Origin: an uncultured Clostridia bacterium | GTDB taxonomy: Bacteria; Bacillota; Clostridia; TANB77; CAG-508 | NCBI GenBank assembly: GCA_963558395.1 | Contig: CAUWGE010000002.1 | Span: forward strand, 899-64,898 | Direction of reading: 5' to 3' | Length of the DNA: 64,000 nt | Shown: one piece after another, positions 6,713 to 43,745 of the stretch | Layout of the letters: each line of letters opens with the position of its first letter | Numbering within the stretch: the first letter of the stretch is position 1 | The notes under the pieces: generated by a model | The model's database searches: none | What the model saw: the letters and a program-made list of their open reading frames with translations, nothing else | What the model was told of the DNA's origin: nothing | Position numbers and translations under genes: made by a program

Positions 6713-7515
6713 TAAAGACAAAATAGAAAAAATTTCAGAAGAAAGAAAAAATTATTTATCAAAAGTAAAAAACAGAAAACTTACAATAATATTAACACAA
6801 ATAGGAATTATAATTGCGTTTATAGCATTATGGGAAATATTAGCTAGGTTAGGAAAGATAGACAGCTTTATAATGAGCCAGCCATCAAGAATAGTAAAAA
6901 CATTTTTAAATTTGTCGTCTAATGATTTACTAAAACATGTTGCTATAACGGTTTTAGAAACCATTGTACGGATTTACTTTAGGAACAGTGCTAGGAGTAA
7001 TAATTGCTGTTATTTTATGGTGGTCTCCATTTATATCTAAAGTGTCTGAACCATTTTTAGTAGTATTAAATAGTCTTCCAAAGGTAGCGTTAGGTCCCAT
7101 AATTATAATTTGGGTAGGAGCAGGAATGCCGGCAATTATAGTTATGGCATTGTTAATTTCACTAATAGTTTCTATACTAAATATACTTAATGGATTAATA
7201 AATACAGAGGAAGAAAAAATAAAGATGGCTAAAACACTAAACGCGAGTAAGTGGCAAATTCTTACTAAAATAGTTTTACCATCTAATTTTAAAACTATTT
7301 TTAATACACTAAAAGTAAATATTGGGCTATCTTTAGTTGGTGTAATTTCAGGAGAATTTTTAGTATCAAAAGGAGGTCTGGGATACTTAATAGTATATGG
7401 CGGCCAAGTATTTAAACTAGACTTAGTTATGACTAGTGTAATAATTTTAGGAATAGTAGCAGCTCTTATGTATGAAGGTGTTGAGCTATTAGAAAAGAAA
7501 GTATTTAAGGAATAA
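6696..7515 (+). pseudogene. ABC transporter permease (SsuC/TauC-like), frameshifted near 6960-6970
   Basis: ORF 6696..7040 reads as a permease N-terminus up to ...HVAITVLETIV, then turns to nonsense. ORF 6964..7515, in the +1 frame, continues with GFTLGTVLGVIIAVILWW... and the permease core. Confidence 0.6.
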
Positions 7516-21700: not shown

Positions 21701-22904
21701 CTATATCTTTTTCCGAAAATTTAGAAATTTGATAATCATAAAAAATATTTGCTTCTCCTGTACCATCCATATCATAAAAATGTGCATCAATAGAATCACC
21801 AATATTAGAAATTGGCTCCCAAGTAGATTCATAATCAATTTCAGCAGTGTTTTTATTATCTCTAGCATTTTGGTAAGATAGCACAAAATCATATAAGTTG
21901 TCACTTATATCACATGTTTGTTTTATATGTTCTAGTAGTTCTAAATATGGGTATTTTTGGTGTCTAAAGATTGAGGTCTGAATATTCGAGACCTTATTTA
22001 AAAATTCATTAAATTTAAGATTAAAATCAATATCTATTTTAAATGGAACTGTGCTTACAAACATTCCAGAAGTATTTTTTTCAGTAAAATTGCTTCTATT
22101 TAAAACTGGTGTACCTAAAATAGCAGTTTTTGTAGAGTTAATTTTGGCTAAATAAATTGAAAAAATTGCCATAAAAAATGTATAAATAGAGCATTTATTT
22201 TCTTTGCAATATTCTAAAATAGCGTCATAAAGACTTGCTTCAAAAAAACAAATTTTTCGTTTAGAAGCGGAATTACTATTATTTTTATTTTTAGATATAT
22301 AAGTCAGTTCTGGTAAGTTTTCAAAATTACTCTCCCAGAATTCCTTATCTTTTATGAATCTGTTACTTTTTTTATACTCATTGCATGAGGCAATATAGTT
22401 TGTATATAATGGCTTTTTCTCAAAGTTAGTATCATTATGCAAAAGTTTTGTATAAATATCTATGAAAGTTGAGATAAATAGACTCATGCTCCAAGCGTCG
22501 GTAATTAAATGATGAAATATTGGAATAATTCCACCTCTTCCATCAGAAAGAGTAAATAATTTGAATTTATATAAATCCTTATCAATGGTTTCGAAGGGTT
22601 CTGAAATAAGCCTTGTGGTTAAAGCTTTTAAATCATCAATATTATTAAGTGACACGACATCTAGTGTAAAGGGCTTATACTCGGTCAAAAATTGAACTGG
22701 TTTAGCATCTTTTATATCAAAGTGCATACAAGATATTTCAGTAGTTTGCACATAAAGATTTGAGGCCTTTTGCAAAAGAGGAATATTTACTTTTTCATTC
22801 AGTAATAAATATCCACCAATATTATTTATATTGGTACCACTATAAAAGACTTCAGAATTCCAAATGTTTTTTTGCTGGTCTGTTAACTCAAATAAAGAAT
22901 TCAT
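15702..22904 (-). CDS. two-module non-ribosomal peptide synthetase, C-A-T-C-A-T-R, with a terminal thioester reductase
   Basis: C domains HHLITDAWS and HHIICDGTS. A-domain cores IIYTSGSTGKPKGV, YGPSECT, GRQDNQIKLHGLRIELDEI and LIYTSGSTGKPKGV, YGPTETT, GRTDFQVKVRGLRIELGEIE. T domains FDWGMDSLSVI and FFDIGGDSLSAL. C-terminal Rossmann fold VLLVGATGFLGIHV. 2400 aa. Confidence 0.95.
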   Translation of the reverse strand: MNSLFELTDQQKNIWNSEVFYSGTNINNIGGYLLLNEKVNIPLLQKASNLYVQTTEISCMHFDIKDAKPVQFLTEYKPFTLDVVSLNNIDDLKALTTRLISEPFETIDKDLYKFKLFTLSDGRGGIIPIFHHLITDAWSMSLFISTFIDIYTKLLHNDTNFEKKPLYTNYIASCNEYKKSNRFIKDKEFWESNFENLPELTYISKNKNNSNSASKRKICFFEASLYDAILEYCKENKCSIYTFFMAIFSIYLAKINSTKTAILGTPVLNRSNFTEKNTSGMFVSTVPFKIDIDFNLKFNEFLNKVSNIQTSIFRHQKYPYLELLEHIKQTCDISDNLYDFVLSYQNARDNKNTAEIDYESTWEPISNIGDSIDAHFYDMDGTGEANIFYDYQISKFSEKDIDLLHSRICEMAKFALQNPQISNIEVTSPEDNKIISDFNNTSFKYDKNTSLISLFSKVVKLNENSPAIIFKGAKLTFKELDEKSNQVANLLLNYGIEKQDSVGIMFNRSFDLLIAIWGVLKVGASYMLIDPSLPQDRVQYMLENASSKLVLTNLYINYPSINIEHRKQFSTCFSPADSSNDDRFCIIYTSGSTGKPKGVELKRIGIINMLNSYKQLLKTNDCKNFLSTSTVAFDMFIVENFVSILDGKTVVLADEEEQKIPAFTSKLIKENHVDFILSTPSKISLLLEEPDCLKDVKVIQLGGEVFKPSLYKRLRENTSAKIYNGYGPSECTACASNKKVKDDNITIGKPFLNTEIYIMNKFGNILPSGVCGEIVIKGDGVGKGYVNKFDFNGTYHTGDLGILSSDGELIYLGRQDNQIKLHGLRIELDEITSKIMQIPEVTNAISVIKKVNNIDCICSYIKADSKLDENYVKDFIARSLPKYMIPSHIMQLSIFPITLNGKIDTKNLPEIQIIHEHFVPCETDFEKKLENILKPILDTDKISATANIFDWGMDSLSVIRLVSEIYSTLNIKLNIQDIYNMPSIKELSSLLEEKNSSSYQKIVIKKHKEADSYPVSSAQRRIFYTVNMETESLAYNTPFGVKFRSKPDISKLEKCLAQILNMHDAFKTYFVLENNDVVQKLVKNIDFHLTVNEYDNENFIRPFDLSKAPLVHVELDHFDDSYLLKLDIHHIICDGTSISIFAKELCDLYNGNQILKSELDYIDYAVSETISEDDKLYWKEQFSAGIPLLNMPTEFERTNIKSEEGSNVYASLDKLSDISTLCKKYNITPYMFFLSCFYILLYKYTMQNDITVGSPVIGRNSPEISNVIGMFVNTLPLKQNIHSASRFSVFLEAVKKNCLNAFNHQTYPFDDLVKTLNVIRDPSRSPIFDVLFTYESGGRPSFSFDGEEVEYVIPENKTSKFDFSLEITPISSGYNFRLEYSTNLYSEKFMKTLLDCYFNIINSCLVNPDIQISKIQMLSKIPYIYPTLDYPRDFRVIDMFENQVKLTPNKIALVCKNEQYTYKELEVKINRLANKLRTFGKKDVIGIMMNRSNNLIISMLAILKSGAGYLPIDPTYPEERVSYIIENSGVDLILTENNLKDLIPTNYLLVDDKANYLPYSEFNTEQGPKDLAYLIYTSGSTGKPKGVMIKQYNVVNFIYGCLERMPLEGKTIVSITTMCFDIFVFESLLPLCTGMKVVMATNDEQNNPILLNELCLKNNVDVIQTTPSKFKLLINDELPYLKELKIVSLIGEPFPLELLKRIKELSDTEVYNMYGPTETTVGSTLKDLTNTNDITIGTPLANTHVLVLDNDMNFVPYYVPGTLYIGGDGVTLGYKNRPELTSEKFIKYNNEIIYNSGDLAKLLPNGELICLGRTDFQVKVRGLRIELGEIERAICSYEGISDAVVTVKTINNRELLCGYFVASGRVPYSTLKKALAKKLPNYMVPNYMLQLESFKYTPNGKIDRKALPDPVFKTAAIVRPKSELESKILNIWRDILSLEEISTEDNFFDIGGDSLSALKMQIELMKNNITVNYGDIFKNNTIHDLANFVENNSTTENLPTYTPKDFKKIDKLLKKNSAFGALKLKQKIIKNVLLVGATGFLGIHVLAELLKIDDIKIYCLIREDPSTSPENKLKRKFQYYFGSDLSNLFGTRLFVISGDITNDKFKVSNEIYNFLGKEVSSVINCAASVKHYGYYKDFEKINVTGAKNLVKFCEEFNKELYHTSTISVSGNTLTGVPSTFKLNKIISFGETNLFIKQPLDNVYVRSKFEAEKFILDEISSKKLKGVILRIGNITNRYSDGKFQENSNDNAFLNRLKAFIYLKEIPLSLLDKYVEFSPVDKIAESIVVCMKYYTSPMSVLHLYNSKHLFIQKFIEYLNNLGYDISVVDDFIFNRHLNNVLFNSSNSDKVSVLLNDLNKDKQLLYKTNLKITNTFTLKFLDKADFYWPEITKEYIEKILKNI

Positions 22905-29247: not shown

Positions 29248-30783
29248 ATGTTATCAATAATAAAAAGTATGGCACTACTTGGACTAAATGGATATCTTGT
29301 AGATATCCAAATAGATGTGTCACAAGGCCTTCCGTACTTTGGCATTGTTGGGCTTCCAGACACAAGTGTAAAGGAGGCAAAAGAAAGAGTAAAAGCAGCT
29401 ATAAAAAATTCAGGTTATGAAATTTTAAATAGAAAAATTATAGTAAATTTAGCACCAGCAGATAGAAAGAAGGAAGGTTCATTATTCGATTTGCCAATTG
29501 CAGTAGGAATACTTGCCTGTAATAAAATTGTAGAATATAGAATGTTAAAAGATACAATTATTATAGGAGAACTTTCTTTAGATGGAAGAATAAACAAAAT
29601 AAATGGAGCATTGCCAATATGTATAGAGGCTAGAAAACTAAATGCCAAAAGAATAATTTTACCAGTAGAAAATGCTAAAGAAGCATCAGTTGTTCAGGGA
29701 ATAAAAGTGATAGGTGTAAAGACACTAAAAGAGGCAATAAAATACTTGAGAAATGAAATAATAATAGAAGAAAATAAAAACAATATAGAAGAACTCCTTA
29801 AAGTGAAAAATAATTATGCACTTGACTTTTCAGAAGTAAAAGGACAAGAAAATATAAAAAGAGCAATAGAAATTGCAGCGGCAGGAGGGCATAATTTGCT
29901 TATGATAGGTAGTGCACGGAAGTGGAAAAACAATGCTTGCTAAAAGAATACCTACAATACTTCCTAAAATGACAGTAGAAGAAGCTTTAGAAACAACAAA
30001 AATTCACAGTATAGCAGGAAACATTCAGAAAAATGAATCAATAATGATAGAAAGACCATTTAGGGCGCCACACCATACAATATCTACAACAGCATTAATA
30101 GGAGGAGGAAATATTCCTAAACCGGGAGAGATAAGCTTAGCACATAATGGAGTGTTATTTTTAGATGAACTTCCAGAGTTTAATAGAAATTCTCTAGAGG
30201 TATTAAGAGGACCACTAGAGGATAAAAATGTTACAATAAGTAGACTATATGCAAGTCTAACATATCCATGTAATTTTATGTTAGTTGCATCCATGAATCC
30301 ATGTCCATGCGGATTTTACGGCTGTGAAGATAAGAAGTGCACATGTTCTAAAACAGATATAAATAATTATATGGGAAGAATAAGTGGACCATTGCTTGAT
30401 AGAATAGATATTCAAATTGAAGTAGGACATCTAAAATATGATGAGCTAAACAGTATAAGAAATATAGAAAATTCAGAAACTATACGGAATAAGGGTTAAC
30501 AAAGCAAGAACACTACAACAAGAAAGGTACAAAGATGAAAATCTTTATTCTAATTCTCAGTTAACACCAAAGCTTATAGAAAAATATTGTAAGATAGAAG
30601 GGAAAGCTAAGGAGATTTTAGAAATAGCATTTTCTAAATTAGGTCTTTCTGCTAGAGCATATAATAAAATCCTAAAAGTAGCAAGAACAATAGCTGACTT
30701 AGAACAAGAGAATAATATTAAAGAAAAGCATATAGCAGAGGCAATTCAATATAGAAGTTTAGATAAAAAATACTGGAATCATT
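29248..30783 (+). pseudogene. comM: YifB/ComM family Mg-chelatase-like ATPase split by two frameshifts
   Basis: ChlI_N-like N-terminus. The Walker A is disrupted (…[12 protein letters not shown] in one frame and [10 protein letters not shown] in another, near 29925). A second shift near 30485 leaves the conserved C-terminus (…[13 protein letters not shown]…AEAIQYRSLD) as an unlisted third piece. Confidence 0.7.
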
Positions 30784-32881: not shown

Positions 32882-32958
32882 GGGTCAGTAGCTCAGTTGG
32901 ATAGAGCATCGGCCTTCTAAGCCGAGGGTCGGGGGTTCGAATCCCTCCTGGCTCACCA
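32882..32958 (+). tRNA. tRNA-Arg (anticodon TCT)
   Basis: GGGTCAGTAGCTCAGTTGGATAGAGCA…; anticodon loop CTTCTAA; T-loop GGTTCGAATCC; CCA end. Confidence 0.8.
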
Positions 32959-32986: not shown

Positions 32987-33062
32987 CGAGGTGTAGCGCA
33001 GTTGGTAGCGCGCGTGGTTTGGGACCATGAGGTCGCAGGTTCGATCCCTGTCACCTCGACCA
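32987..33062 (+). tRNA. tRNA-Pro (anticodon TGG); its 3' end is the integration site of the downstream element
   Basis: CGAGGTGTAGCGCAGTTGGTAGCGC…; anticodon loop TTTGGGA; T-loop GGTTCGATCC; acceptor CACCTCG-A-CCA. Confidence 0.85.
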
Positions 33063-33075
33063 CTTTTTTGCCCTT

Positions 33076-33260
33076 TTTCAAGGGAATTTAAGAGAATTTG
33101 AAGAAATTCAAAAGTTATAAATTATGCTATTTTTCAATAAAAATGAAGAATAGCATAATTTTTTAAAGTTCAGAAAAATGCTATAAAATTTGCTTATTTT
33201 CTTCAAGAAAAAGTTTCAAGAAAATTTTTATAATTTTTCAAGAAAGTTTCAAGGAAAAAT
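33076..33260. repeat. array of GTTTCAAG(A/G)AAA direct repeats plus an 11-bp inverted repeat upstream of repA (iteron or arm-site-like)
   Basis: TTTCAAGGGAA (33076), GTTTCAAGAAAA (33213), GTTTCAAGGAAA (33247), ATTATGCTATT…AATAGCATAAT (33121-33161). The 15-mer AAGTTTCAAGGAAAA recurs at 42867-42881. Confidence 0.55.
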
Positions 33261-33310
33261 ATCAAGTTGTTTTAAAGTTCTTCAGATAAATAGAAAGGAG
33301 AACTTTTTTT

Positions 33311-34216
33311 ATGGAATTTAAACCTTATAAAGATAATGAATATTTAGAAAATTCATATTATAAAATACCACAAGAACTATTTGTAAGTTCTTTATATAAA
33401 GATAAAATAAATTCAGATAGTAAAATACTATATGCTTTTTTACTAGACAGATTATCACTATCTCAAAAAAATCACTGGATAGATGAAGAAAGAAATATAT
33501 ATTTAATTTTTACAAGAGAAGAAGTACAAGAAAAATTGAATTTATCTGACAAGACTGCAACAAAAGCATTCAAACAGTTAGGTGATGTAGGACTTGTACA
33601 AGAGAAAAGACAAGGATTAGGAAGGCCTAATTTAATATATGTTGGAAAAATACAACATGAAGAAACGGAAAATTTACGTTTCTTGATTCGTAAAAATTAC
33701 GATTCTGGAAACGAAGATATTACGAATCTTGAATCGGAGAATTTACGAGGAATCGATACTAATAATATCAAAACTAATATAATCAATACTGATTCTATCA
33801 ATCCTAATAGCGATGATGAACTTCATTTAAAAGAAATAAAAGATAAATGCAAACTAGATGAATTTCCTCAAGAAGAAAAAACTATCTTAGAAGATGTTAT
33901 TGATAGCCTATATTATAAAGATAATTTGAAAGTTGGGAGTGTAACAGTTAATCACTACAAAATATTAGATAAATTAAAACTTATTGTTAAAGAAAATTTA
34001 ATACAGTTATTAGATATATTAAAAAATATACCTAATATACAAAATGCTAAAAATTATTTGATGATTTGCTTATATAATAATTTAGGAAATACACATATTA
34101 CTATCCCAAAGAAAAAAGAGAATACTACTTCATATAATGGAAGGGACTATGAAAATGGCTCACTTGATTTTCTATATGCTAACTTTGCTTATGATAACGA
34201 AGCAGTAACTTCGTAG
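33311..34216 (+). CDS. replication initiator protein A (RepA_N family)
   Basis: The N-terminal YYKIPQELF…SDSKILYAFLLDRLSLSQKN…RPNLIYVGK is typical of Firmicutes RepA_N initiators. Confidence 0.8.
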   Translation: MEFKPYKDNEYLENSYYKIPQELFVSSLYKDKINSDSKILYAFLLDRLSLSQKNHWIDEERNIYLIFTREEVQEKLNLSDKTATKAFKQLGDVGLVQEKRQGLGRPNLIYVGKIQHEETENLRFLIRKNYDSGNEDITNLESENLRGIDTNNIKTNIINTDSINPNSDDELHLKEIKDKCKLDEFPQEEKTILEDVIDSLYYKDNLKVGSVTVNHYKILDKLKLIVKENLIQLLDILKNIPNIQNAKNYLMICLYNNLGNTHITIPKKKENTTSYNGRDYENGSLDFLYANFAYDNEAVTS

Positions 34217-34420
34217 GCATAGCTTTGATATGAAATTGCCAGCCATACTTATATGGGCAATTTCACTATAAATTATAATGACAAGTTCATTATAATTTAT
34301 AGCCTAAAAATGTTAAGGCATTTTTAGGAAAGCCTCGCAGAGCACACAGATAAGTTTGAAAAACTTGTCTAGTGTGTTAGACAAATAAATTTGTTTCGAG
34401 CAAGAAAGGACTTCGGAGCA

Positions 34421-35644
34421 ATGAGTTATGCAATAGTAAGAAATGAAAAATTAACAAGGAGCCAAGCTAATGGAATATGTGTTCATAATGATAGAAAAGC
34501 AAAAAATCATTCAAATAAGGAAATAGATATTAGCAAATCAAACTTAAATTATTACTTCAAGCAAAATGAATTAAGTTACACAAAAGAATTTGACAAACTA
34601 AAGAAGAAATACAATTTACAAGGACAAATAAGAAGCAACAGCATAATAATGTGCGAAATGATATTTACATCAGATAAAGAATTCTTTGATACAATTGGAA
34701 TGGAAGAAACTAAAAGATATTTTGAAGAAAGTTACAAGTTTATTTGTAATTATAAAAATCTCGGAGAGAAAAATATAATATCAGCTGTAGTTCATTTTGA
34801 TGAAACAACTCCACATATGCATTTGATTTATATTCCAGTAATCCAAACAAAAGATAAAGATGGACATGAAATTGATAAAGTATGTTGTAGGGATTTTTGG
34901 AAAGGTAGAGATAGTTATAGAAATTTGCAAAATGCTTTTCACGAATATATAACTGGCAAAGGATTTGACTTGCAAAGAGGATTACCTGCAGAAGAAACTA
35001 AAAGAAAAAATGAAACAATTCAAAATTATAAACAAATAACTAATTTTGAAAATACAAAAAGGGTTTTAGAAAATATAACATTAGAATTACCTAAAACGCC
35101 TAATATTAAAGAGTTTAAAAGAGCTATATTTAATCGTGATGAAAAAATAGAAAATGCAATAATAAAACCTAGAGATGAACTAATCCAAAAGCTTTATCAA
35201 GAAAACAAGACATTGCATAAAGAATTATCAAGACAAGTAAATACAGTAGATTTTGCAGAAAATTTCAAGGAAGATTATATAAAAATGACAGAAAAGAACA
35301 TAAATTTAAGGCTCTCAAATAGTTTGCTTAAAGAAGAATTGGAAAATAAAGAAAAAGAACTGGAATTAAAGTATGAAAGTAAAGCCTATAATATGGAACA
35401 TGAATATAAAAAAGAAATCCATAAATTAAAGCAGAAAAATAAGAACTTAAATAAAATGATTGATAAATTTAAAGTGACTTTAAAAAGATTTATTAAATGG
35501 CTTTGCCATAAGTTTTCATATCCGTCTGAGGATGAACTTGTACGAGATTTTGAGAAAGAAACATATAATAACTTTAATTTTGAAAAACAACTCGATATAA
35601 ATGAATTTAAGGAGAAAGAAAACGATTTTGATAGAGAATATTGA
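34421..35644 (+). CDS. MobV/Pre family relaxase (plasmid recombination/mobilization protein)
   Basis: MSYAIVRNEKLTRSQANGICVHNDRK…SNKEIDISKSNLNYYF matches the Mob_Pre N-terminal relaxase motifs. Coiled-coil C-terminus. Confidence 0.8.
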   Translation: MSYAIVRNEKLTRSQANGICVHNDRKAKNHSNKEIDISKSNLNYYFKQNELSYTKEFDKLKKKYNLQGQIRSNSIIMCEMIFTSDKEFFDTIGMEETKRYFEESYKFICNYKNLGEKNIISAVVHFDETTPHMHLIYIPVIQTKDKDGHEIDKVCCRDFWKGRDSYRNLQNAFHEYITGKGFDLQRGLPAEETKRKNETIQNYKQITNFENTKRVLENITLELPKTPNIKEFKRAIFNRDEKIENAIIKPRDELIQKLYQENKTLHKELSRQVNTVDFAENFKEDYIKMTEKNINLRLSNSLLKEELENKEKELELKYESKAYNMEHEYKKEIHKLKQKNKNLNKMIDKFKVTLKRFIKWLCHKFSYPSEDELVRDFEKETYNNFNFEKQLDINEFKEKENDFDREY

Positions 35645-35698
35645 AGAGAGCAAATTTATGAACTGCTCTCTTTAATGCACTTTGCAATTTATGAACAA

Positions 35699-37432
35699 TT
35701 ATATACTTATTGAAAATTCTTCATTTTCATATAACATTTTGTATTCACAACTTGTACTAATTAATTCTTTATGAGTACCATTAGCAATGATTTTATGATT
35801 ATGTAATAAATATATATTATCTGAATCAACAATTGTACTTAATCTATGAGCTACTATAACAACAGTATGATCTTTAGATAATTCCTTTATAACATTTTTA
35901 ATTCTTTCTTGGTTGTTGTTATCTAAGCTACTCGTAGCTTCATCTAATAATATAATTTTTGATTTTCTAATCAAAGCTCTAGCAATAGCTATTCTTTGTT
36001 TTTGACCACCACTTAATATAACACCATTTTCTCCAACTAAAGTATTATACGCATCTTTCATTGCCATTATATCATCATGTATTTGAGATTTTTTACATAC
36101 TTCAATTATTTCTTCATCAGTTGCTTCTGGTTTTGCTAGTTTAATATTTTCTTTAATTGACAAATTAAAGATATATGGAGATTGAGAAACAATAGAAATA
36201 TTATTTCTAATTGTGTTTTCAGATAATTCATTAATATCAGTATCATCTATTAAAATTTTACCACTATTTAATTTATAATTTTTTCCTATTAGTTTTAATA
36301 TTGTTGATTTACCTTCTCCACTTTTTCCAACAAATGCTACCATAGTATTAGGTTTTATTTCAAAACTTAAATCTTTAAATAATTCTTTATTATTATATTG
36401 AAAATTTACATCTTGAAATTTTATTTTACCTATTATATCTGTTAACTGGGTATCACCATATGAGTCTTTGGTAAATGTATTATAATCGATAATATCAAAA
36501 ACTCTTATTGCAGATACTTTTCCATCAGCAAATTTCTCTCTTATTTCTGATATATAATCTATTAAATTTAATACTTTATTCTTATATAAAAATATTATCA
36601 AGAAAGAGCTGATTTGTAGTGTATTATTTGTTATAAAATAAATAGAAAGAATTATAAATATAAAATCTAATATATGTTGAAAAGTTTTAATATATCTATT
36701 CCAAGTTCTTCTTGTATGAGTCTTTTTTATATCATAACTTATTACATCTTTTTGTTTAATATTTATTCTATCTAATAAGGTATCTTTTAAATTTAAATTT
36801 TGAACTTCTCTAATTCCTCTTATTACATCTGTGTATATACCTACTATTTCTTCATCTTTTTGTTTATACTTGGCTTTTACATTTTTATAGTAAAATAATT
36901 TTTTAGAAGTCAATATATATACTAATATAATATTTAATATCAAAAACAATCCAAGATATTTATTAAGATATAATACATATATAATAAAGCTTAAATTTAG
37001 AATAATCCCTGATAAATCATCTGTTATATAATCAAATAATTCAGATAATTCAGATGTATCTTTATTTAATCTTGAGATAAATATACCTGAATTAGTATTA
37101 TCATAATTTTTTAACTCAAAATTAGTTAAGCTTTGTATCATATCGTGTTTTAAATCAAAATTCACTTTTCCGTTGAGTTTTAAAACTGCTCTTGACCATA
37201 GATTAGTAACTATTTCTATTACAATTCGCAATATCATAAGGAAAAGTGCAATTTTTAATATATTAGATTTATCAAAATTTTCAAAATATCCTAACATCTT
37301 TCCTTCGTAAATAGGCGAAAGTAATGATATTCCAGCATATCCTAAACTTAATATAATAACTATAATACATAGAAATTTGTATTTTTTATAATATTTAATT
37401 AATTTTATTAAACTTTTCGTGTCTTTTTTCAT
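35699..37432 (-). CDS. ABC exporter, fused six-TM permease and ATPase (no peptidase domain)
   Basis: N-terminal TM domain. Walker A GKSGEGKST, signature LSGGQKQRIAIARAL, Walker B ILLDEATSSLD. Confidence 0.85.
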   Translation of the reverse strand: MKKDTKSLIKLIKYYKKYKFLCIIVIILSLGYAGISLLSPIYEGKMLGYFENFDKSNILKIALFLMILRIVIEIVTNLWSRAVLKLNGKVNFDLKHDMIQSLTNFELKNYDNTNSGIFISRLNKDTSELSELFDYITDDLSGIILNLSFIIYVLYLNKYLGLFLILNIILVYILTSKKLFYYKNVKAKYKQKDEEIVGIYTDVIRGIREVQNLNLKDTLLDRINIKQKDVISYDIKKTHTRRTWNRYIKTFQHILDFIFIILSIYFITNNTLQISSFLIIFLYKNKVLNLIDYISEIREKFADGKVSAIRVFDIIDYNTFTKDSYGDTQLTDIIGKIKFQDVNFQYNNKELFKDLSFEIKPNTMVAFVGKSGEGKSTILKLIGKNYKLNSGKILIDDTDINELSENTIRNNISIVSQSPYIFNLSIKENIKLAKPEATDEEIIEVCKKSQIHDDIMAMKDAYNTLVGENGVILSGGQKQRIAIARALIRKSKIILLDEATSSLDNNNQERIKNVIKELSKDHTVVIVAHRLSTIVDSDNIYLLHNHKIIANGTHKELISTSCEYKMLYENEEFSISI

Positions 37433-37437
37433 TCCTG

Positions 37438-37944
37438 TTATTCCTTTATTAAATTCATTTTAATTAATGCATCTTCTAAACATTCATTTTTATCAATAAA
37501 TATAATATTTTTTATATTGTATTCTCTTATTCTAGGATACCATAAATTAACTTTATCTTTTATTGCTTGAGCCCATTCTTCGGTATTTCCTCTATCTATA
37601 CATCTTTGTTTTAAAACATCTCCAGAATCTAATTTAGGATAAGCTAAATAGAAACTAATATTATTTTTATTAAAATATTCTAATAACTTCCAATGCATAG
37701 ATGTTAAAACTATATCATATTTTTTTCTAGCCTCTAAAATAGCTTTAATATAGTTTTCAGGAAATTTATCATTTGGTATTCTTTCTTTTTTCCCTTTGTT
37801 AGTCTCTATTTCTTCAAGCGTCATTTTATTTTTATACTTCCATTGATATAAACTTGACTCTAAATCTATTATATTATCATATTTTTGTGCTAATGTTGTT
37901 TTTCCTAATGCTGTAAATCCTGCTATAATAATTCCTTGTTTCAT
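37438..37944 (-). CDS. small P-loop NTPase/kinase-like protein
   Basis: Walker A IIIAGFTALGKTTLA near the N-terminus. 168 aa. Stop lies 5 bp before the ABC exporter start. Confidence 0.5.
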   Translation of the reverse strand: MKQGIIIAGFTALGKTTLAQKYDNIIDLESSLYQWKYKNKMTLEEIETNKGKKERIPNDKFPENYIKAILEARKKYDIVLTSMHWKLLEYFNKNNISFYLAYPKLDSGDVLKQRCIDRGNTEEWAQAIKDKVNLWYPRIREYNIKNIIFIDKNECLEDALIKMNLIKE

Positions 37945-38046
37945 AAATACTCCCTTTTTTACAAATTTTAGTCGATACCTTTATTTTTTTTGATTTTCGT
38001 TTAAACTATCTGGTAATTTATCTATAATCAAGTTACAGTCAAGTTA

Positions 38047-38123
38047 AAATTATCCGGAAAATTATCCGATACTTTTTGAAAATTATCCGATACTTTATCC
38101 GGTACTTCCGGATAAAGTATCGG
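38047..38123. promoter_or_regulatory. three AATTATCCG(A/G) direct repeats and a 16-bp perfect inverted repeat (putative operator)
   Basis: aattatccggaaa, aattatccgatacttttt, aattatccgatactttatccgg. CCGATACTTTATCCGG-tactt-CCGGATAAAGTATCGG at 38087-38123. Confidence 0.5.
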
Positions 38124-38132
38124 AACAAATAA

Positions 38133-39791
38133 CTATTTTTTTGCCCATACTGGATAACGAGTTGTTCCAATATTCTTTATTTTTTCTTGTTTCTTCTGTA
38201 AGCAAACATTCACAAGATACTTTATTTTTGTTTTCTTTTGCTCTTTGTTTAGATGGTCAGGCAATTTGCTTATCAATAATTCATCTAAATCTTTCTTTGT
38301 AATACTTCCAAAGTCATTTATATATTTCAAAACTAAATCTTTATAATATTGATCATTGAATCCGGATTTTTTAGTATAGGAAACTTTATCATCAACAATT
38401 TCAGAGATTTGTTTAGAAACATATATATTAGGATATCTTCCTTCAATTAAATTGTCTTTACGAAGAATATCGGATTGCTCTTTAGATATTGGGATATTTT
38501 TTTGTACTCTATCTAAAAGCATAACTTCTTGTAGGCTTAAATCAGTTTTTTCAAATAATACTTGAGAGTATTTTTCATCTAGAATTTTACCATATATAGT
38601 TACTTTTACTCTATCTTTTTCACTTAAGTCATAATCTGGCATAGGGAAGAATCTTTCTCTTAACTTTTCAAAACTTCTTCTTATTCCCATACCTGCGGTA
38701 TCAATCATATTTAAATTAACCATTGCTTGTGCTAAAAATTGATTTCTATAATATGGTGGAACATAACCCTCATTTATAATTAAAGTATCGACTGATTGAG
38801 GTATAAATCTCCCTTCATTCAATATCATTAATTTATCTCTCATTTCGATAATGTTTACTCTTCCACCTTTTCTATAGTCTTGATGTGCAATGGCATTATT
38901 TAATAACTCACGAAGAATATTTATATCATATTTATCTACTTCATTTGGAAAAAGTGTTGTTTGACTTGGCATATATCTATATCTCAAATTTCTGATTTTT
39001 TCACTAGCTTTATCCATTGTAATAATAAATGGAATTGTAAAATGTTCATAGTCAATAATATCCGTACCTTCTTGTAATTTCCAAGTTATATAAGGAATAT
39101 AATTATCAACATATGTATTTGTATCTTCACTTCCTAATAATAGCCATGCAGCACGAGTTACTTTACCATTTAACAAAACTTTTGCTTTATTTAAAAAGGT
39201 AATATCATCCATTTTATCAATTTCATCTGCAATTTCTTTATTTTCATTTTTCTTTTTAAATTGTTCTCTAGCTTTTAATATAGCATTTTTATCTAAATCA
39301 TCAACTGTTAAGTCACTAATAATTTGTCTTGTCCAATCAACATTTACTGTAGATAATATTGTATCTCTTTTTACATCATTTAAAGGAATTAGTGACTCAT
39401 CATTTCTATCGTAAGCAATGTTTTTCCAAGTAGTTGGTACTCCAATTGCTGCAGGAATTTTAAACATTATAACTCTATTACTATCAATTTCAAATTCATA
39501 TATATCCATAAATGTCATATTATCATTAGTTGATTGAGTTATTTCTTTTTTCAAGCTGTTTAAATTAGCACCTTTTCTATAATTAGTATTTACAAATTCA
39601 TGAGTTTTATCACTTACTCCAAATACAAGCCAAGCATATTGTTTTCCTACTAAATTAGCACCATTACTTAATGCAGAAAAATATCTTCCAAGTTCATTAA
39701 AATCAAAATTATTTTTAGCTTCCTTATATTCAACATATTCTTTTTCGTTTTCTTTAATTAAAGAAAGTAATATATTTTTTATTTCTTCCAT
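38133..39791 (-). CDS. Schlafen/AlbA_2-like putative DNA-binding domain protein with a C-terminal HATPase_c_4/RecG-wHTH-like region (annotated family 'ATP-dependent DNA helicase RecG domain protein')
   Basis: The N-terminus EYVEYKEAKNNFDFNELGRYFSALSNGANLVGKQYAWLVFGVSDK fits the AlbA_2 pattern. 552 aa. Second gene of a two-gene minus-strand operon. Confidence 0.5.
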   Translation of the reverse strand: MEEIKNILLSLIKENEKEYVEYKEAKNNFDFNELGRYFSALSNGANLVGKQYAWLVFGVSDKTHEFVNTNYRKGANLNSLKKEITQSTNDNMTFMDIYEFEIDSNRVIMFKIPAAIGVPTTWKNIAYDRNDESLIPLNDVKRDTILSTVNVDWTRQIISDLTVDDLDKNAILKAREQFKKKNENKEIADEIDKMDDITFLNKAKVLLNGKVTRAAWLLLGSEDTNTYVDNYIPYITWKLQEGTDIIDYEHFTIPFIITMDKASEKIRNLRYRYMPSQTTLFPNEVDKYDINILRELLNNAIAHQDYRKGGRVNIIEMRDKLMILNEGRFIPQSVDTLIINEGYVPPYYRNQFLAQAMVNLNMIDTAGMGIRRSFEKLRERFFPMPDYDLSEKDRVKVTIYGKILDEKYSQVLFEKTDLSLQEVMLLDRVQKNIPISKEQSDILRKDNLIEGRYPNIYVSKQISEIVDDKVSYTKKSGFNDQYYKDLVLKYINDFGSITKKDLDELLISKLPDHLNKEQKKTKIKYLVNVCLQKKQEKIKNIGTTRYPVWAKK

Positions 39792-39813
39792 TTAGAATCC
39801 CTCCAATTCAGTA

Positions 39814-40680
39814 TTAATTTTCTTCCTCTTGAGCTCTTTTTCTAAAACTATAAACATTAGCTTTATTCTTGCATTGTGGTGTATCATATTCTGCCTTTGA
39901 GTTTTTAGGTATAAAAGCTTTATGGCAAAATTTACAAATCTTAAGCATAATCGTATCTTGTGATAAATTTACTAAAAAATTCAAATCTATTGCTTGTTTT
40001 AAATAACCATAAACTAAACCTATTTCATTATTATGCAAGCTATCTATATTAGTATAAAGATTATTTATTGCTATAAGTGGAGAATAATTCATTAAGTGAC
40101 GTTCTTCTACAAAGTGAACTAAATGTTCATAAAGAATTTTTGCATATTGTAAAATCATATCAACAGGTTCTCCATAGTTTTTAGAGAAAATTAAAAATTC
40201 ATTTAGCTCTGGTGTAAGATATTTTTCCATAATTCTAGGAGATATATCTTTTCTACATTTTGCAATAAGTTCTTTAATTTGATTACTATTTAGTTTTGGC
40301 ATAAAGAAATTTAAGTATTCTTCTAATTTCATATTTGTTATATGATCTTCGTAATTAATTAAATTATAATCTCTTAAAGCAACAGTATCATCTAACACAT
40401 AATATCTATTAACTGGAAAATCAGCCATAAATCCAAATAAGCCATAGTTTCGTACATAATCTAAAATTTCTATATCTTCAACTTCTTCATTGTAATATAC
40501 TTTTTTTCCAATATTTAAAATATCTATTAAATATCTATCTATCCAATCAGAAAAAGTTGAAGCATGATTTTTAGCTCCTTTTTCTGGTAGAACATATCTT
40601 TTTCCGTTTATTTCTTCGATTACATATCTGTCAAAAGCTAGGCAGAAACGTTGATTTTCTATATAAAAATTAGCTTTCAT
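39814..40680 (-). CDS. hypothetical protein with a C-terminal CxxC…C zinc-finger-like tail
   Basis: 288 aa with no recognisable domain. C-terminus CKFCHKAFIPKNSKAEYDTPQCKNK. Stop lies 22 bp before the AlbA_2-like gene. Confidence 0.4.
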   Translation of the reverse strand: MKANFYIENQRFCLAFDRYVIEEINGKRYVLPEKGAKNHASTFSDWIDRYLIDILNIGKKVYYNEEVEDIEILDYVRNYGLFGFMADFPVNRYYVLDDTVALRDYNLINYEDHITNMKLEEYLNFFMPKLNSNQIKELIAKCRKDISPRIMEKYLTPELNEFLIFSKNYGEPVDMILQYAKILYEHLVHFVEERHLMNYSPLIAINNLYTNIDSLHNNEIGLVYGYLKQAIDLNFLVNLSQDTIMLKICKFCHKAFIPKNSKAEYDTPQCKNKANVYSFRKRAQEEEN

Positions 40681-40723
40681 TTTCCACTCCTAAAAAATAT
40701 TTAAATTTTTCGTTGTAATCACT

Positions 40724-40751
40724 TGACAAATTATAAAGATTACGTTATAAT
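40724..40751 (+). promoter_or_regulatory. consensus sigma-A promoter (TTGACA-17-TATAAT) flanked by an inverted repeat, driving the xis-int leader
   Basis: TTGACA at 40723-40728, a 17-nt spacer, TATAAT at 40746-40751. GTAATCACTTG (40715) and CAAGTAATTAC (40762) flank it. Confidence 0.5.
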
Positions 40752-40834
40752 CTGATAAAATCAAGTAATTACTTGTTGATATATATAGATTACAATAATT
40801 ACTTTAAAAAGTCAATAGAATTACCCAAAATTCT

Positions 40835-41040
40835 TTAAATAGCACATTGAAAATTGAATATTTCAGTTGTTAGATACAGCATAATGAGACACTTGCATAG
40901 CCTTAACTCATCGTATAGGGTGCAACTCGGACGGAGTCGGAGTGGTGAAATTCCAGTGGAGTAATGTAAATTACCATCTAATAATTCCCAGATGATGAGG
41001 GACAAGGAAAATATCATCATAAATAAAGCACGAAAGGAGA
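40835..41040 (+). other. GC-enriched, hairpin-rich ~200-nt leader between the promoter and xis (possible regulatory RNA)
   Basis: Local GC clearly above the surroundings (…GGGTGCAACTCGGACGGAGTCGGAGTGGTGAAATTCCAGTGG…). GATGATGA…TCATCATC hairpin. The 61-aa ORF here looks spurious. Confidence 0.2.
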
Positions 41041-41047
41041 AAAACTT

Positions 41048-41242
41048 ATGGAAAACGAAATCAAATTTTATACTACAGCAGATGTAAGAAGAATATTAGG
41101 AATAGGAAATAAAACATGTTTAGACTTATTCCATCGTTCTGATTTTCCTTGCATTAAAGTCGGAAAATCATTTAAAGTTGCTGTAAGTTCATTTAATGAA
41201 TACGTAAGTACACGTAGAGTTTTAAGTGAAGTAAATGAGTAA
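41048..41242 (+). CDS. xis: excisionase/HTH_17 DNA-binding protein
   Basis: A 64-aa helix-turn-helix protein (TTADVRRILGIGNKTCLDLF) just upstream of the integrase. Confidence 0.65.
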   Translation: MENEIKFYTTADVRRILGIGNKTCLDLFHRSDFPCIKVGKSFKVAVSSFNEYVSTRRVLSEVNE

Positions 41243-41414
41243 GATTACAACAGATAAAAAAAGAAGATTTAAATATGCGACATTTAAACCTTCAAACTAC
41301 TATTTTAAATCGAATACAAGAAAACTCTTGTTATAGTATTGAAATAATTATACACAAAAAATCAAAATATATCAAGAGTTTTCCTTAAATTTAACAAGAA
41401 AGGAAAGCAAAGAA

Positions 41415-42809
41415 ATGAATAAAGTAAAAGGAATTACAGTAGGAACGTATTTAACGAAAACAATTAAAAATTCAAAAAATAAAGGTTTATCTAGCAAAGA
41501 AATTTGTAACAATTGTAAGATGAAAGATAAATGTAAATATAGACAAATAACAAAATTTGAGAATGGAAAAGTTATTGATAATAATGTAGAATGTGATTCT
41601 TTCTATTTTTCTATAACACCAAAGGCGATAGTAACAACAGGTAGAGATACAGTTACAGGAAAAAGAACTACTAAAACATTTGTAGGAAAGAATGAGAAAG
41701 AAGCATTTAATAAAGCATTGTCATTCCAAATTGAAATGGAAGAAAATCAAGAATTTAGAATAATTACTAAAAGTAATAAAACAATAATTGATCTTGTAAA
41801 AAATAAAATTGAAGAAGATTATAAATTAGGCAAGATAATTAAAGCAACACATAAAAGAAAATCAGATACAGTAAAGAAACTAGCTAAAGAGAAATTTACT
41901 AACAAACCTATTTCAAAAGTTACAAGAGATGAAGTAGTTAAATATTTAGAGAGTTTGAAAACCTATTCTAAAAGTACAATAAAACAAAATTATGAACTAT
42001 TATGTATGGCATTTGGACAAGCAAAATATGAAAATATCATAACAGATAATTTTATGGAAGGCTATAATCGAGTTGAAAAGCCAAAAAGTGAATATAAAAG
42101 TCATCATAGAGTTTCACTAACAGTTGATGAGCAAAAGAAACTGGTTGATTACTTAAATAATGCAAGTTATAAAGAATGTCGACACAAATATATTTTGTTA
42201 CTATTATTGAGTACAGGAATGAGAATAGGAGAGGCTTTAGTTTTAGATTATGATAAAGATATAGATTTAGAAAACAGAAAAATCTATATTAGAAGAACTC
42301 AAACAAAAGATAATAATGGCAAAGCAATTATAGGAAATACTACAAAAACAAATACAGGTAAAAGAATTTTGAATATGAATAATATAATTTATCAAATTAT
42401 TCAAGGTACTTTAGAACATAAGGTTGATAATAAAGAACATTTATTATTTTGCAAAGAAGATAGAACAATGTATGTAGAAAATTCTATAAATAGCAGTCTA
42501 AAAAGAATTGCATTAGATTTGAATATTGGAATCTATGAAGAAGAAAATACAAAAGGAAAATTAGTTAAAAAGACTGATATTCATACCCATATGTTAAGAG
42601 GAACATTTGCAACTAGATGTGCAGAGGCTAAAATTGCTCCAGCAGTTCTAAAAAAGATATTAGGTCATACTGATATTACTGTCACAATGAAATACTACGT
42701 TGATGTAGATGTTGAATTTGAAAAGGCAGAAAATAAAAATGTTGAAGATTATTTAATAGATAAAGAGATATTTAATATAGATACAGATTATGATTATGAC
42801 TATGATTAA
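41415..42809 (+). CDS. int: tyrosine-type site-specific integrase
   Basis: Catalytic-domain motifs LLLSTGMRIGEALVL, HTHMLRGTFATR and ILGHTDITVTMKYY (R…HxxR…Y). Next to the right-hand direct repeat. Confidence 0.85.
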   Translation: MNKVKGITVGTYLTKTIKNSKNKGLSSKEICNNCKMKDKCKYRQITKFENGKVIDNNVECDSFYFSITPKAIVTTGRDTVTGKRTTKTFVGKNEKEAFNKALSFQIEMEENQEFRIITKSNKTIIDLVKNKIEEDYKLGKIIKATHKRKSDTVKKLAKEKFTNKPISKVTRDEVVKYLESLKTYSKSTIKQNYELLCMAFGQAKYENIITDNFMEGYNRVEKPKSEYKSHHRVSLTVDEQKKLVDYLNNASYKECRHKYILLLLLSTGMRIGEALVLDYDKDIDLENRKIYIRRTQTKDNNGKAIIGNTTKTNTGKRILNMNNIIYQIIQGTLEHKVDNKEHLLFCKEDRTMYVENSINSSLKRIALDLNIGIYEEENTKGKLVKKTDIHTHMLRGTFATRCAEAKIAPAVLKKILGHTDITVTMKYYVDVDVEFEKAENKNVEDYLIDKEIFNIDTDYDYDYD

Positions 42810-42822
42810 AAACACAAAAGAG

Positions 42823-42890
42823 AAACCTTGAAACCTTACTAAAATTTATCAGAATTAATTTTATTAAAGTTTCAAGGAAAAGTTTCAAAG
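42823..42890. repeat. right-end copies of the GTTTCAAGGAAAA motif (two direct, one inverted)
   Basis: aaaccttgaaacctt (inverted copy) and AGTTTCAAGGAAAAGTTTCAAAG. Shares a 15-mer with the left end. Confidence 0.5.
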
Positions 42891-43003
42891 TAAAAAACAA
42901 GACTTTAAAATACTTGATAAATAAAGAAAAATAGCAATTGGCTAGAGTACCTCACCTCGACCATATTTATAGGAAGTCCAACCTTAAATAGGGACATTAA
43001 AGA

Positions 43004-43036
43004 AAAGACTTGGGCAAATTCCAAGTCTTTTTTCTA
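43004..43036 (+). terminator. rho-independent terminator just outside the right-hand direct repeat
   Basis: AGACTTGG-gcaaatt-CCAAGTCTTTTTTCT. Confidence 0.6.
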
Positions 43037-43055: not shown

Positions 43056-43745
43056 ATGAAAATTTTAGAATTCATTTTAAGTAATAGGGACTATTTAGAA
43101 GATTTAATTACAAGAAGTACTTATCATTCAAATGCTATTGAAGGAAGTACACTTACTTATGCTGAAACATATGCTATTCTTTATAATGACAATAGCTTTA
43201 AAATTGAAGGAAAAGAGCCAAGAGAAATATATGAGGCTATTAATCATAAAAAGGCTTTAGAATTAGCTTTTAAAAAATTACAAAATAATGAAGAATTTGA
43301 TGAAAGATTTATAAAGAATTTAAATGAAACTATAAATAGAGATATTAAAGATGCAGAAGGTTATAGGACTGTACAAGTATTTATACGAGGTAGTGAACAT
43401 ATTCCACCACAACCTGAAAAAGTACCAAATTTAATGATGTATTATATATATAATTATAATCATGATGAGCAAGATATATTCAATAAAATTGCTAGATATC
43501 ATATTGAATTTGAAAAAATACATCCTTTTGAAGATGGAAATGGAAGAACAGGAAGATTACTTATAAATTATGAATTGTTGAAAAATGATTTACCACCTAT
43601 TGTTATAGCAAAAGAAGATAGAATAAAATATTTTGAATTTTTAAGAAATACTGAAGTCAATGGATTAGCCGAATGGCTAAAAGAATTACCCGATAGAGAA
43701 TCGGAGAGAATGGAGAAGTTTGGATATAAAGTTAACTTAGTTTAA
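43056..43745 (+). CDS. Fic/DOC family protein, class II (intramolecular inhibitory motif)
   Basis: Fic motif HPFEDGNGRTGR. N-terminal SNAIEG matches the (S/T)xxxE(G/N) auto-inhibitory motif. RBS AAGAGG. Confidence 0.8.
   Translation: MKILEFILSNRDYLEDLITRSTYHSNAIEGSTLTYAETYAILYNDNSFKIEGKEPREIYEAINHKKALELAFKKLQNNEEFDERFIKNLNETINRDIKDAEGYRTVQVFIRGSEHIPPQPEKVPNLMMYYIYNYNHDEQDIFNKIARYHIEFEKIHPFEDGNGRTGRLLINYELLKNDLPPIVIAKEDRIKYFEFLRNTEVNGLAEWLKELPDRESERMEKFGYKVNLV

Follow-up and report, generated by a model that had tools for sequence, protein, structure and literature searches.

What lies between the two copies of a tRNA 3′ end that stand almost 10 kb apart in the genome of an uncultured Clostridia bacterium, and is it mobile? 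We addressed this question in a stretch of 64,000 nucleotides (GenBank assembly GCA_963558395.1, contig CAUWGE010000002.1, positions 899 to 64,898 of the forward strand); the whole stretch is called the window, and its own numbering is used throughout. The original prediction, made from the letters alone, was that a 9.9-kb integrative mobilizable element (IME) had been inserted into the 3′ end of a tRNA-Pro gene. The analysis supports it: we consider it highly likely that the segment 33063-42963 is an intact IME inserted site-specifically at the 3′ end of tRNA-Pro(TGG). We observed the features by which an IME can be tested, namely a recombinase, att sites, an empty site, a relaxase with an origin of transfer (oriT), and the absence of a type IV secretion system (T4SS). 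Beyond what had been predicted, we found arm-type integrase sites, iterons within repA, a pemK RNA in the leader of the excision genes, a conserved gene for a 288-aa protein and tandem arrays, and we could gauge the size of the family to which the element belongs.

Insertion at the 3′ end of tRNA-Pro

The integration site has the following features.

32987-33062, plus strand: tRNA-Pro(TGG), the integration target, intact after insertion (ARAGORN; Rfam tRNA, 67 bits; equal to the empty-site copy)
33051-33062, plus strand: attL core, the left copy of TCACCTCGACCA, formed by the last 12 nt of tRNA-Pro
42952-42963, plus strand: attR core, the right copy of TCACCTCGACCA, an exact repeat
43003-43036, plus strand: host terminator hairpin with a T-run, outside the element (terminator scan; position in the empty site)

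The exact 12-bp repeat on which the prediction was built is confirmed: TCACCTCGACCA has two exact copies, at 33051-33062 and 42952-42963, and occurs nowhere else in the 64-kb window; it was absent from all of 100 dinucleotide-preserving shuffles of the window. Since the bases next to the two copies differ, the repeat is exactly 12 bp long. The left copy consists of the last T-stem base, the 3′ strand of the acceptor stem, the discriminator and CCA; the second lies 9,901 bp downstream of it. As the element carries its own copy of the tRNA 3′ end, tRNA-Pro stays intact on integration. By convention, the element spans 33063-42963, i.e. 9,901 bp. A tRNA-Arg(TCT) gene (32882-32958, plus strand; ARAGORN) precedes tRNA-Pro(TGG). 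The G+C content changes from ~29% in the flanks to 20-27% within the element, and the GC skew is inverted across the cargo genes, which lie on the minus strand.

A comparison with related genomes had been proposed as a check, in the expectation of an empty tRNA-Pro site. We fetched metagenome contigs of the same organism via exact-protein look-up of two flanking genes (loci fetched here and in the scans below are designated L001-L092). The empty site was found in L001/L004 and L002/L006, in which the left flank is followed by one core and the right flank, and a gene for a 471-aa protein, both tRNA genes and a Fic gene adjoin. In these contigs tRNA-Pro ends with ...TCACCTCGACCA and continues directly into TATTTATAGGAAGTCC..., the hairpin and the Fic gene; the read-out, with a slash at the junction, is ...GGTTCGATCCCTGTCACCTCGACCA / TATTTATAGGAAGTCCAACC...AAAAGACTTGGGCAAATTCCAAGTCTTTTTTCT...ATG(Fic). 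Because the 5-kb flanks of these contigs are 100% identical to those of the window, the ends of the element are fixed to the base. The terminator-like hairpin noticed past the right copy is present, and in the empty site it stands 41 nt past the CCA of tRNA-Pro, as expected of the original terminator of the tRNA operon; the suggestion that it served the operon before the insertion is thus supported. The host gene directly right of attB (43056-43745, plus strand) encodes a Fic-domain protein matching the PADLOC candidate defence family PDC-S04 (E 2.6e-65).

The site is not always occupied in the same way. Among 24 contigs with the left flanking gene, 18 carried this element, three were empty, two carried a different relative at the same site and one ended at the tRNAs. 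The relative in L005 (11810-21416), from the same species and with flanks 99.9% identical, is a different family member at the same attB; its genes encode RepA_N, Mob_Pre, TnpV, DUF6664, DUF6076, Xis and a 455-aa Int, and it shares 21 bp (TCACCTCGACCATATTTATAG) with attB, as compared with 12 bp for the element of the window. The whole element is also found in other species: it is 98.6-98.7% identical in L010 and L015 and 95.9% identical in L014, all three being other species' representatives in which it adjoins tRNA-Pro while the flanks have no detectable similarity to those of the window. In other relatives, what is conserved is confined to two backbone blocks, RepA-Mob and P288-leader-Xis-Int (P288 being the 288-aa protein), and the cargo is different.

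Occupied, empty and alternatively occupied sites with identical flanks, together with near-identical copies elsewhere, are evidence for recent mobility. They bear directly on the possibility that the island is fixed and no longer mobile, its repeats being relics in a decayed remnant. In favour of this are the indirect nature of the evidence for excision of this copy and the failure of one metagenome scan to return its exact attP junction. We consider such a relic very unlikely, given that all backbone open reading frames (ORFs) are intact with their catalytic motifs preserved, that the three states of the site coexist among strains with 100% identical flanks, and that other species have copies of ≥98.6% identity between unrelated flanks.

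A look-up of the window's integrase by exact sequence returned no record, so the window's allele is slightly different; RepA and the flanking genes served as queries in its place. Homologues of the integrase are numerous, 607 at E ≤ 1e-10; 809 sequences belong to the closest cluster alone. In a scan of one genome per GTDB species we observed 79 loci in ~74 assemblies (species). The hosts are all uncultured gut Clostridia resembling ‘Clostridium sp. CAG:793’, from humans, rabbits, chickens and ruminants. At least 29 loci with enough flank have tRNA-Pro(TGG), oriented like int, 7-11 kb upstream of it, and the core TC[A/G]CCTCGACCA follows 140-180 bp past the int stop in ~73 of the 79 loci. Neither of the patterns that would have spoken against the prediction was seen: the same genes with no repeat at the right end, or the repeat at many unrelated loci, the core not being scattered over the window. 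The core usually tracks the variant of the host tRNA, as with TCGCC... in both copies or TCACCCCGACCA (..CCCC..) in both copies of L087. In the exceptions, L045 (attL TCG..., attR TCA...) and L073-L079 (attR ACACC...), the copies depart from each other, so that only CCTCGACCA must be identical and the crossover is to be placed within it.

Tandem arrays of the form core-element-core-element are frequent (L010, L011, L017, L018, L023, L028/L060, L034, L038, L053). The tRNA-Pro site is a hotspot, where two to three elements, related or of other families, may stand in tandem between core copies (also in L063); recurrent sequences after the core, e.g. GAAAAAGGAGCTTTTT, suggest that further element families use this site.

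Genes and sites of the backbone and the cargo

The RepA_N initiator, MobV relaxase, excisionase and tyrosine integrase that had been placed between the repeats are all present (Pfam, NCBIfam). The integration and excision genes and the sites on which they would act are as follows.

41415-42809, plus strand: int, tyrosine integrase, 464 aa (Pfam PF00589, Phage_integrase, E 1e-25)
41048-41242, plus strand: xis, excisionase-type HTH_17 protein, 64 aa (Pfam PF12728, 28.6 bits against a cut-off of 27)
33210-33225 and 33243-33258, plus strand: P′ arm-type sites, direct repeats AAAGTTTCAAG(A/G)AAA (repeat search)
42866-42894, plus strand: P arm-type sites, two direct repeats AAAGTTTCAAGGAAAAGTTTCAAAGTAAA (repeat search)

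Residues 158-440 of Int align with the structure of Tn1549 Int (6EN0, E 7e-18), and the catalytic residues align as well: R270, H392, R395, H418 and Y427/Y428 are invariant among 13 homologues and make up the complete R...HxxR...H...Y set. The N-terminal extension of ~130 aa (41415-41800) has four cysteines (C31, C34, C40, C60) that are invariant in the same 13 homologues; it had no family match in Pfam and no detectable sequence similarity to known arm-binding domains, and its AF2 model, of low confidence (pLDDT 34-64), gives only a beta-beta-beta-alpha topology. In relatives xis always stands immediately upstream of int.

The candidate arm-type target of the N-terminal domain of Int is AAAGTTTCAAGGAAA. 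The 64-kb window has just two exact copies of the 14-mer AGTTTCAAGGAAAA, at 33245 and 42868; near-copies are seen at 33212 and 42881. The layout is conserved across 25 relatives: two direct repeats precede the attR core, by ~87 and ~75 bp, and two to four follow the attL core at a distance of 140-195 bp. Their sequence varies with the integrase lineage (TTTCAAGGAAA, TTTCAACAA, TTCTACAAA, TCTGGAA, TGTTCCGCAA), the offsets being conserved. Judged from the sequences, repeats that are fixed in offset and dependent on lineage form the pattern expected of the arm-type sites of a heterobivalent integrase. Int would bind the arm-type repeats on either side of the core and recombine attP with attB within CCTCGACCA; the boundaries, the empty site and the arm-site layout were observed directly, and the catalytic step is attributed to Int.

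The replication module comprises two features.

33311-34216, plus strand: repA, full-length RepA_N replication initiator, 301 aa (Pfam PF06970, E 2e-22)
33664-33750, plus strand: iteron cluster within repA, candidate oriV (inverted-repeat search; sequence)

RepA scores 79 bits against PF06970, with a cut-off of 30, and its N-terminal winged-helix domain matches the staphylococcal RepA structures of pSK41 and pTZ2162 (4PTA/4PT7, E 2.5e-23). The iterons are five TTACG/CGTAA units at 33674, 33689, 33697, 33720 and 33743 (gene positions 364-433). Words containing CG are probably rare in the host genome, judging from its ~28% G+C. In diverged relatives the spacing is kept and the unit is switched to TTACAG/CTGTAA. 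The origins of RepA_N plasmids sit inside the rep gene (cited in PMC5357655); by analogy, the iteron cluster is likely to be oriV. The excised circle would then be copied by the RepA_N initiator acting on the iterons within its own gene, as in the RepA_N plasmid paradigm, a step supported by a circular contig of a sibling element (L088, see below).

A full-length initiator raises the possibility of an integrative plasmid (episome), whose excised form persists as a RepA_N theta plasmid, so that the chromosomal copy is one of two stable states. The iteron cluster is conserved, a sibling element assembles as a circular-type contig of 8.5 kb, and the 301-aa RepA is plasmid-like, as opposed to the RepA_N proteins of streptococcal IMEs, which are ~100 aa long and thought to act otherwise (PMC5357655). 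Yet nearly all contigs of family members show the integrated form beside tRNA-Pro, the circular-type contig is a single one and could be a collapsed tandem, and no partition or toxin-antitoxin genes were detected with Pfam and NCBIfam. We regard the episome as plausible, at rather less than even chances, and as overlapping with the IME rather than excluding it. A recently integrated known plasmid was considered as well and rejected: a plasmid collection gave no nucleotide match to the element, and the protein matches were remote (≤31% identity for Mob; ≤40% for RepA, in the N-terminal half only).

Transfer of the IME would depend on a relaxase gene and the site in front of it.

34421-35644, plus strand: mobV, MOBV1 relaxase, 407 aa from ATG (Pfam Mob_Pre, E 1e-44)
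34340-34385, plus strand: oriT of pMV158 (MOBV1) type (match to the published pMV158 oriT)

Translation of mobV from an alternative upstream TTG start at 34391 would give 417 aa. The protein passes the NCBIfam MobV equivalog (133.8 bits, cut-off 100) and aligns with the relaxase domain of MobM (structure 4LVI, E 3e-26). H22, in VHNDR (HxxR), aligns on KHNER of MobM, whose nucleophile we take to be His22, and VHFDETTPHMH aligns on VHLDESTPHMH (HxDE..PHxH). MOBV1 relaxases use a histidine nucleophile (PMC5863519).

An oriT near mobV, for which the prediction had called, is there: GAGCACACAGATAAGTTTGAAAAACTTGTCTAGTGTGTTAGACAAATAAA, 45 nt upstream of the mobV ATG. It contains an IR1/IR3 hairpin (34342-34377) and IR2 arms, TTGTCTA/TAGACAA, around the loop GTGTGT; the predicted nick falls on the plus strand between G34376 and T34377, in TAGTGTG/TTA. 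In the pMV158 oriT, GCACACACTTTATGAATATAAAGTATAGTGTG/TTATACTTTAC, the IR1/IR3 hairpin likewise ends at the nick and IR2 spans it (PMC5863519). The hairpin of the single-stranded oriT has −9.9 kcal/mol (z = −4.07). Upstream of mob, TAGTGTGTTA is found in 21 of 22 homologues, down to 34% identity, and the hairpin arms change compensatorily across the family, e.g. ...AGTGTTG-TAGTGTGTTA-CAACAC.... With pMV158 the element thus has in common a MobM-like relaxase domain and the layout GAGCACAC...hairpin...TAGTGTG/TTA with IR1/IR3 and IR2. It differs in that its relaxase is only ~31% identical to plasmid MobV proteins, and in that pMV158 is a rolling-circle plasmid, dependent on RepB, and lacks an integrase.

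None of the nine ORFs of at least 64 aa in the element matched T4SS or coupling-protein families (Pfam, NCBIfam, PHROGs, PADLOC), and conjugation genes were found neither there nor in the remainder of the window, in agreement with the prediction. The genes that define an integrative and conjugative element (VirB4-type ATPase, coupling protein, mating-pore genes) are likewise without a match between the repeats (Pfam, NCBIfam). With neither T4SS nor coupling protein, the element requires a helper for transfer. The MobM-like relaxase would nick the oriT at GTGTG/T and lead the plus strand out via the mating pore that a conjugative element in the same cell provides, as its motifs and the oriT suggest.

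A tyrosine integrase that targets a tRNA gene, with an excisionase, is typical of prophages and phage satellites as well, and several proteins matched PHROG families, including an integrase and a DnaD-like helicase loader. The integrase would in that case serve lysogeny, and the element, a phage satellite or defective prophage, would spread by transduction. The PHROGs matches are limited, however, to integrase, replication-initiator-like, ‘DNA helicase’ (the Schlafen/AlbA_2 protein) and unknown-function families; Pfam, NCBIfam and PHROGs gave no genes for capsid, terminase, portal, primase-helicase or packaging redirection, and a canonical MOBV1 relaxase with its oriT is kept throughout the family. 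We consider a phage satellite or defective prophage very unlikely.

Between mob and P288 the element carries its cargo.

35699-37432, minus strand: ABC exporter, fused permease and ATPase, 577 aa (Pfam ABC_membrane, ABC_tran)
37438-37944, minus strand: P-loop protein, 168 aa (phrog_4182, unknown function, E 2.5e-26; GxxxxGKT in the translation)
38086-38124, minus strand: hairpin with a 17-bp stem just past the stop of the 552-aa gene (terminator scan)
38133-39791, minus strand: Schlafen/AlbA_2 and HATPase_c_4 protein, 552 aa (Pfam PF04326, PF13749)

The slot is variable across relatives, and comparison with them shows that its content is exchangeable. The ABC exporter resembles MsbA and bacteriocin exporters and falls under every NCBIfam equivalog cut-off; its gene has the lowest G+C of the region (~20%). 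The P-loop protein had no match in Pfam. Between the Schlafen-like gene and the P-loop/ABC genes, repeats containing TTATCCG (38046-38107) run into the 17-bp-stem hairpin, which is probably a terminator; the TTATCCG region is possibly an operator as well. A role of the cargo as a defence system was considered and rejected as unsupported, the PADLOC matches of the ABC exporter being generic ATPase matches and that of the Schlafen protein marginal. In L091, which is integrated at tRNA-Pro and has an Int of 75% identity, the slot holds a gene of the Beta-lactamase family (PF00144; 4131-5219, minus strand). L005, L091 and L092 carry a TnpV gene beside mob; the element of the window has none.

Two host genes outside the element deserve mention. 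A gene resembling ComM/Mg-chelatase, made up of 29248-29943 (plus strand) and the ORF next to it downstream, appears as two overlapping ORFs (231 and 188 aa) in all contigs of the species (6094-6789 and 6779-7345 in L001), and may be frameshifted or split. The other, at 15702-22904 (minus strand), encodes a non-ribosomal peptide synthetase of 2,400 aa, although the gut Clostridia host has a small genome of low G+C; the protein has condensation, AMP-binding, PP-binding and reductase-type domains (precomputed Pfam matches for L003).

A pemK RNA in the leader of the excision genes

The region upstream of xis has three features.

40723-40751, plus strand: xis-int promoter TTGACA-17-TATAAT, the only 12/12 sigma-70 consensus in the region, facing xis
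40881-40959, plus strand: pemK RNA motif (Rfam RF02913) in the 5′ leader of xis (51.9 bits, gathering score 34.8)
39814-40680, minus strand: P288, orphan 288-aa backbone protein, divergent from xis and conserved beside it (28-100% identity)

The pemK motif is an orphan, a candidate cis-regulatory RNA. The Rfam model also finds it in L045 (9434-9531, 52.5 bits) and L087 (9463-9580, 53.4 bits). We built our own covariance model from 19 family sequences and ran it on 81 sources; it yielded 44 copies, all on the int strand and just upstream of the xis homologue. In 35 distinct sequences 99.2% of the cells are paired and 13 of 23 pairs change on both sides; the covariation score was reached by none of 500 shuffles and controls slid along the sequence dropped to 30-45% paired, figures to be read with the caveat that the alignment was fitted to the model. 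The copies fall into three length classes, according to an insertion in the first helix; that of the window belongs to the shortest class. Its clade has two further covarying hairpins between pemK and the ribosome-binding site, and no U-run terminator. About half of the integrase family is without a pemK leader.

P288 has a CxxC...C zinc-ribbon motif at its C-terminus. There are 272 homologues, none of them named, and no match in Pfam, NCBIfam or PADLOC; the AF2 model is confident (pTM 0.82), and Foldseek returned no matching fold from the PDB. Such a protein is a candidate regulator. In each of the 39 pemK copies with enough flank, a divergent ORF lies 77-324 nt upstream; in 25 it belongs to the P288 family. 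The other 14 did not match the P288 model, and all seven of these that were scanned against Pfam are DUF6076. Relatives of the divergent partner gene include one in L005 (18784-19887, minus strand). The similarity of P288 to DUF6076 is confined to a 37-column zinc-ribbon match (hhalign probability 35%). In the literature searched, we found no function for the pemK RNA and no mention of DUF6076.

According to this layout, the consensus promoter would drive a long leader with the pemK RNA motif and then xis and int, and the divergent zinc-ribbon protein P288 would probably contribute to the excision switch. More generally, we put forward as a tentative idea, less probable than its opposite, that pemK RNA and a divergent zinc-ribbon protein, P288 or DUF6076, form an unrecognised excision switch of integrated elements. 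The switch could work by protein-RNA contact or by sensing a ligand; alternatively, the motif might function as DNA, structured and single-stranded, on the strand that is transferred. If true, this would be the first function for the pemK motif. The placement of pemK RNA in the leader of an excision operon gives it a precise, testable context, and its link to the xis-int operon is the most interesting by-product of the analysis and the one lead worth following.

The excised form, known systems and significance

Detection of an excised circle had been proposed as a further check. It came out in favour by way of a sibling of the element, which was found with an attP junction. We searched metagenome contigs with a degenerate attP junction and obtained three matches, of which only L088 (OIWT01005861.1) was informative. 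This contig of 8,569 bp has no tRNA and a non-repetitive terminal overlap of 49 bp, which makes it a circular-type contig of 8,520 bp. It reads RepA (92%), Mob (93%), 2.8 kb of other cargo, P288 (98%), Xis (100%), Int (96.5%), the core and the left end of the element, and thus carries the Int-core-RepA attP junction. L088 represents either a circle that was excised, and that possibly replicates, or a collapsed tandem. Terminal overlaps are absent from all other fetched loci of L001-L092, the ~10-kb contigs L091 and L092 included; L091 is integrated, and L092 shows Int followed by RepA, i.e. a tandem array or a circle.

Several points weigh against our interpretation of the segment as an intact and active IME. 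The exact attP junction of the window's allele (...GGCTAGAGTACC-TCACCTCGACCA-CTTTTTTGCCC...) was not found when JGI metagenome contigs were scanned for it. Evidence that the element excises and is mobilized is indirect, consisting of the circular-type contig of a sibling with its attP junction and of the near-identical copies in different species, and L088 may be no free circle but a tandem repeat that collapsed. The name excisionase depends on a borderline HTH_17 match and on gene position, and the model of the N-terminal domain of Int is of low confidence. The function of RepA and its origin are assigned by analogy, and any role of the pemK RNA or P288 is conjectural. Finally, no helper conjugative element was identified.

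With these reservations, how does the element compare with known systems? The ~10-kb IMEs NBU1 and NBU2 of Bacteroides also combine a tyrosine integrase with a tRNA 3′ end targeted via a short common core, and their transfer depends on a conjugative transposon; they differ in phylum, relaxase family and tRNA target (Leu/Ser), and are not known to have a RepA_N replicon or a pemK leader. Tn4451 has a MobV-type relaxase, TnpZ, with a large serine recombinase, TnpX, and is not known to target a tRNA; the TnpV gene beside mob in L005, L091 and L092 is a further likeness of several relatives to it. Tn4451/Tn4453 of clostridia have been named as MOBV1 IMEs (PMC12084326).

The closest likeness is to the MOBV1 IMEs of Firmicutes with tyrosine integrases, such as the streptococcal IME_Class_10/IMESag-rpsI and those of Faecalibacterium (PMC5357655, PMC5090054, PMC12084326). 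In common are the small size (5-18 kb), the tyrosine integrase, MobV with its oriT, the absence of T4SS and coupling protein, the exchangeable cargo and the frequent tandem accretion at one att site (PMC5357655, PMC12084326). The differences concern the target, which here is the 3′ end of tRNA-Pro(TGG) and there rpsI or other described sites; the pemK RNA in the xis-int leader, paired here with the orphan 288-aa gene (or a DUF6076 gene); and the host, here an uncultured low-G+C gut Clostridia lineage. In addition, a 301-aa RepA_N with internal iterons stands here in place of the MobT/rolling-circle replication protein and ~100-aa RepA_N fragment of the streptococcal class.

Single modules have their counterparts elsewhere. 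With the RepA_N theta plasmids (pSK41, pTZ2162 and pAD1 type) the element shares the N-terminal DNA-binding domain and repeats in the middle of the rep gene; unlike theirs, its replicon is part of a 9.9-kb integrating element, and its replication would follow by analogy. The Int of Tn1549 (6EN0/6EMZ) is the closest solved integrase, and the core has arm-type repeats on both sides, as it does in lambda and Tn916-type systems. In contrast to Tn1549/Tn916, which are permissive for AT-rich targets, the integrase studied here is strictly specific for a tRNA 3′ end, and it has the ~130-aa N-terminal region with four invariant Cys.

The element is of a well-known kind, a MOBV1 IME, cleanly delimited and evidently active, real but ordinary in kind, and it would hardly surprise a specialist. 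The family is a large, undescribed group within the MOBV1 IMEs, and its scale gives it weight: it is present in ~74 species, and its hosts are uncultured Clostridia with small genomes, whose mobile-element biology is almost unknown. The tRNA-Pro elements could possibly serve as a chassis for genetic tools. One docking site, tRNA-Pro(TGG), combined with a swappable cargo slot is a plausible route of gene exchange among these gut bacteria.

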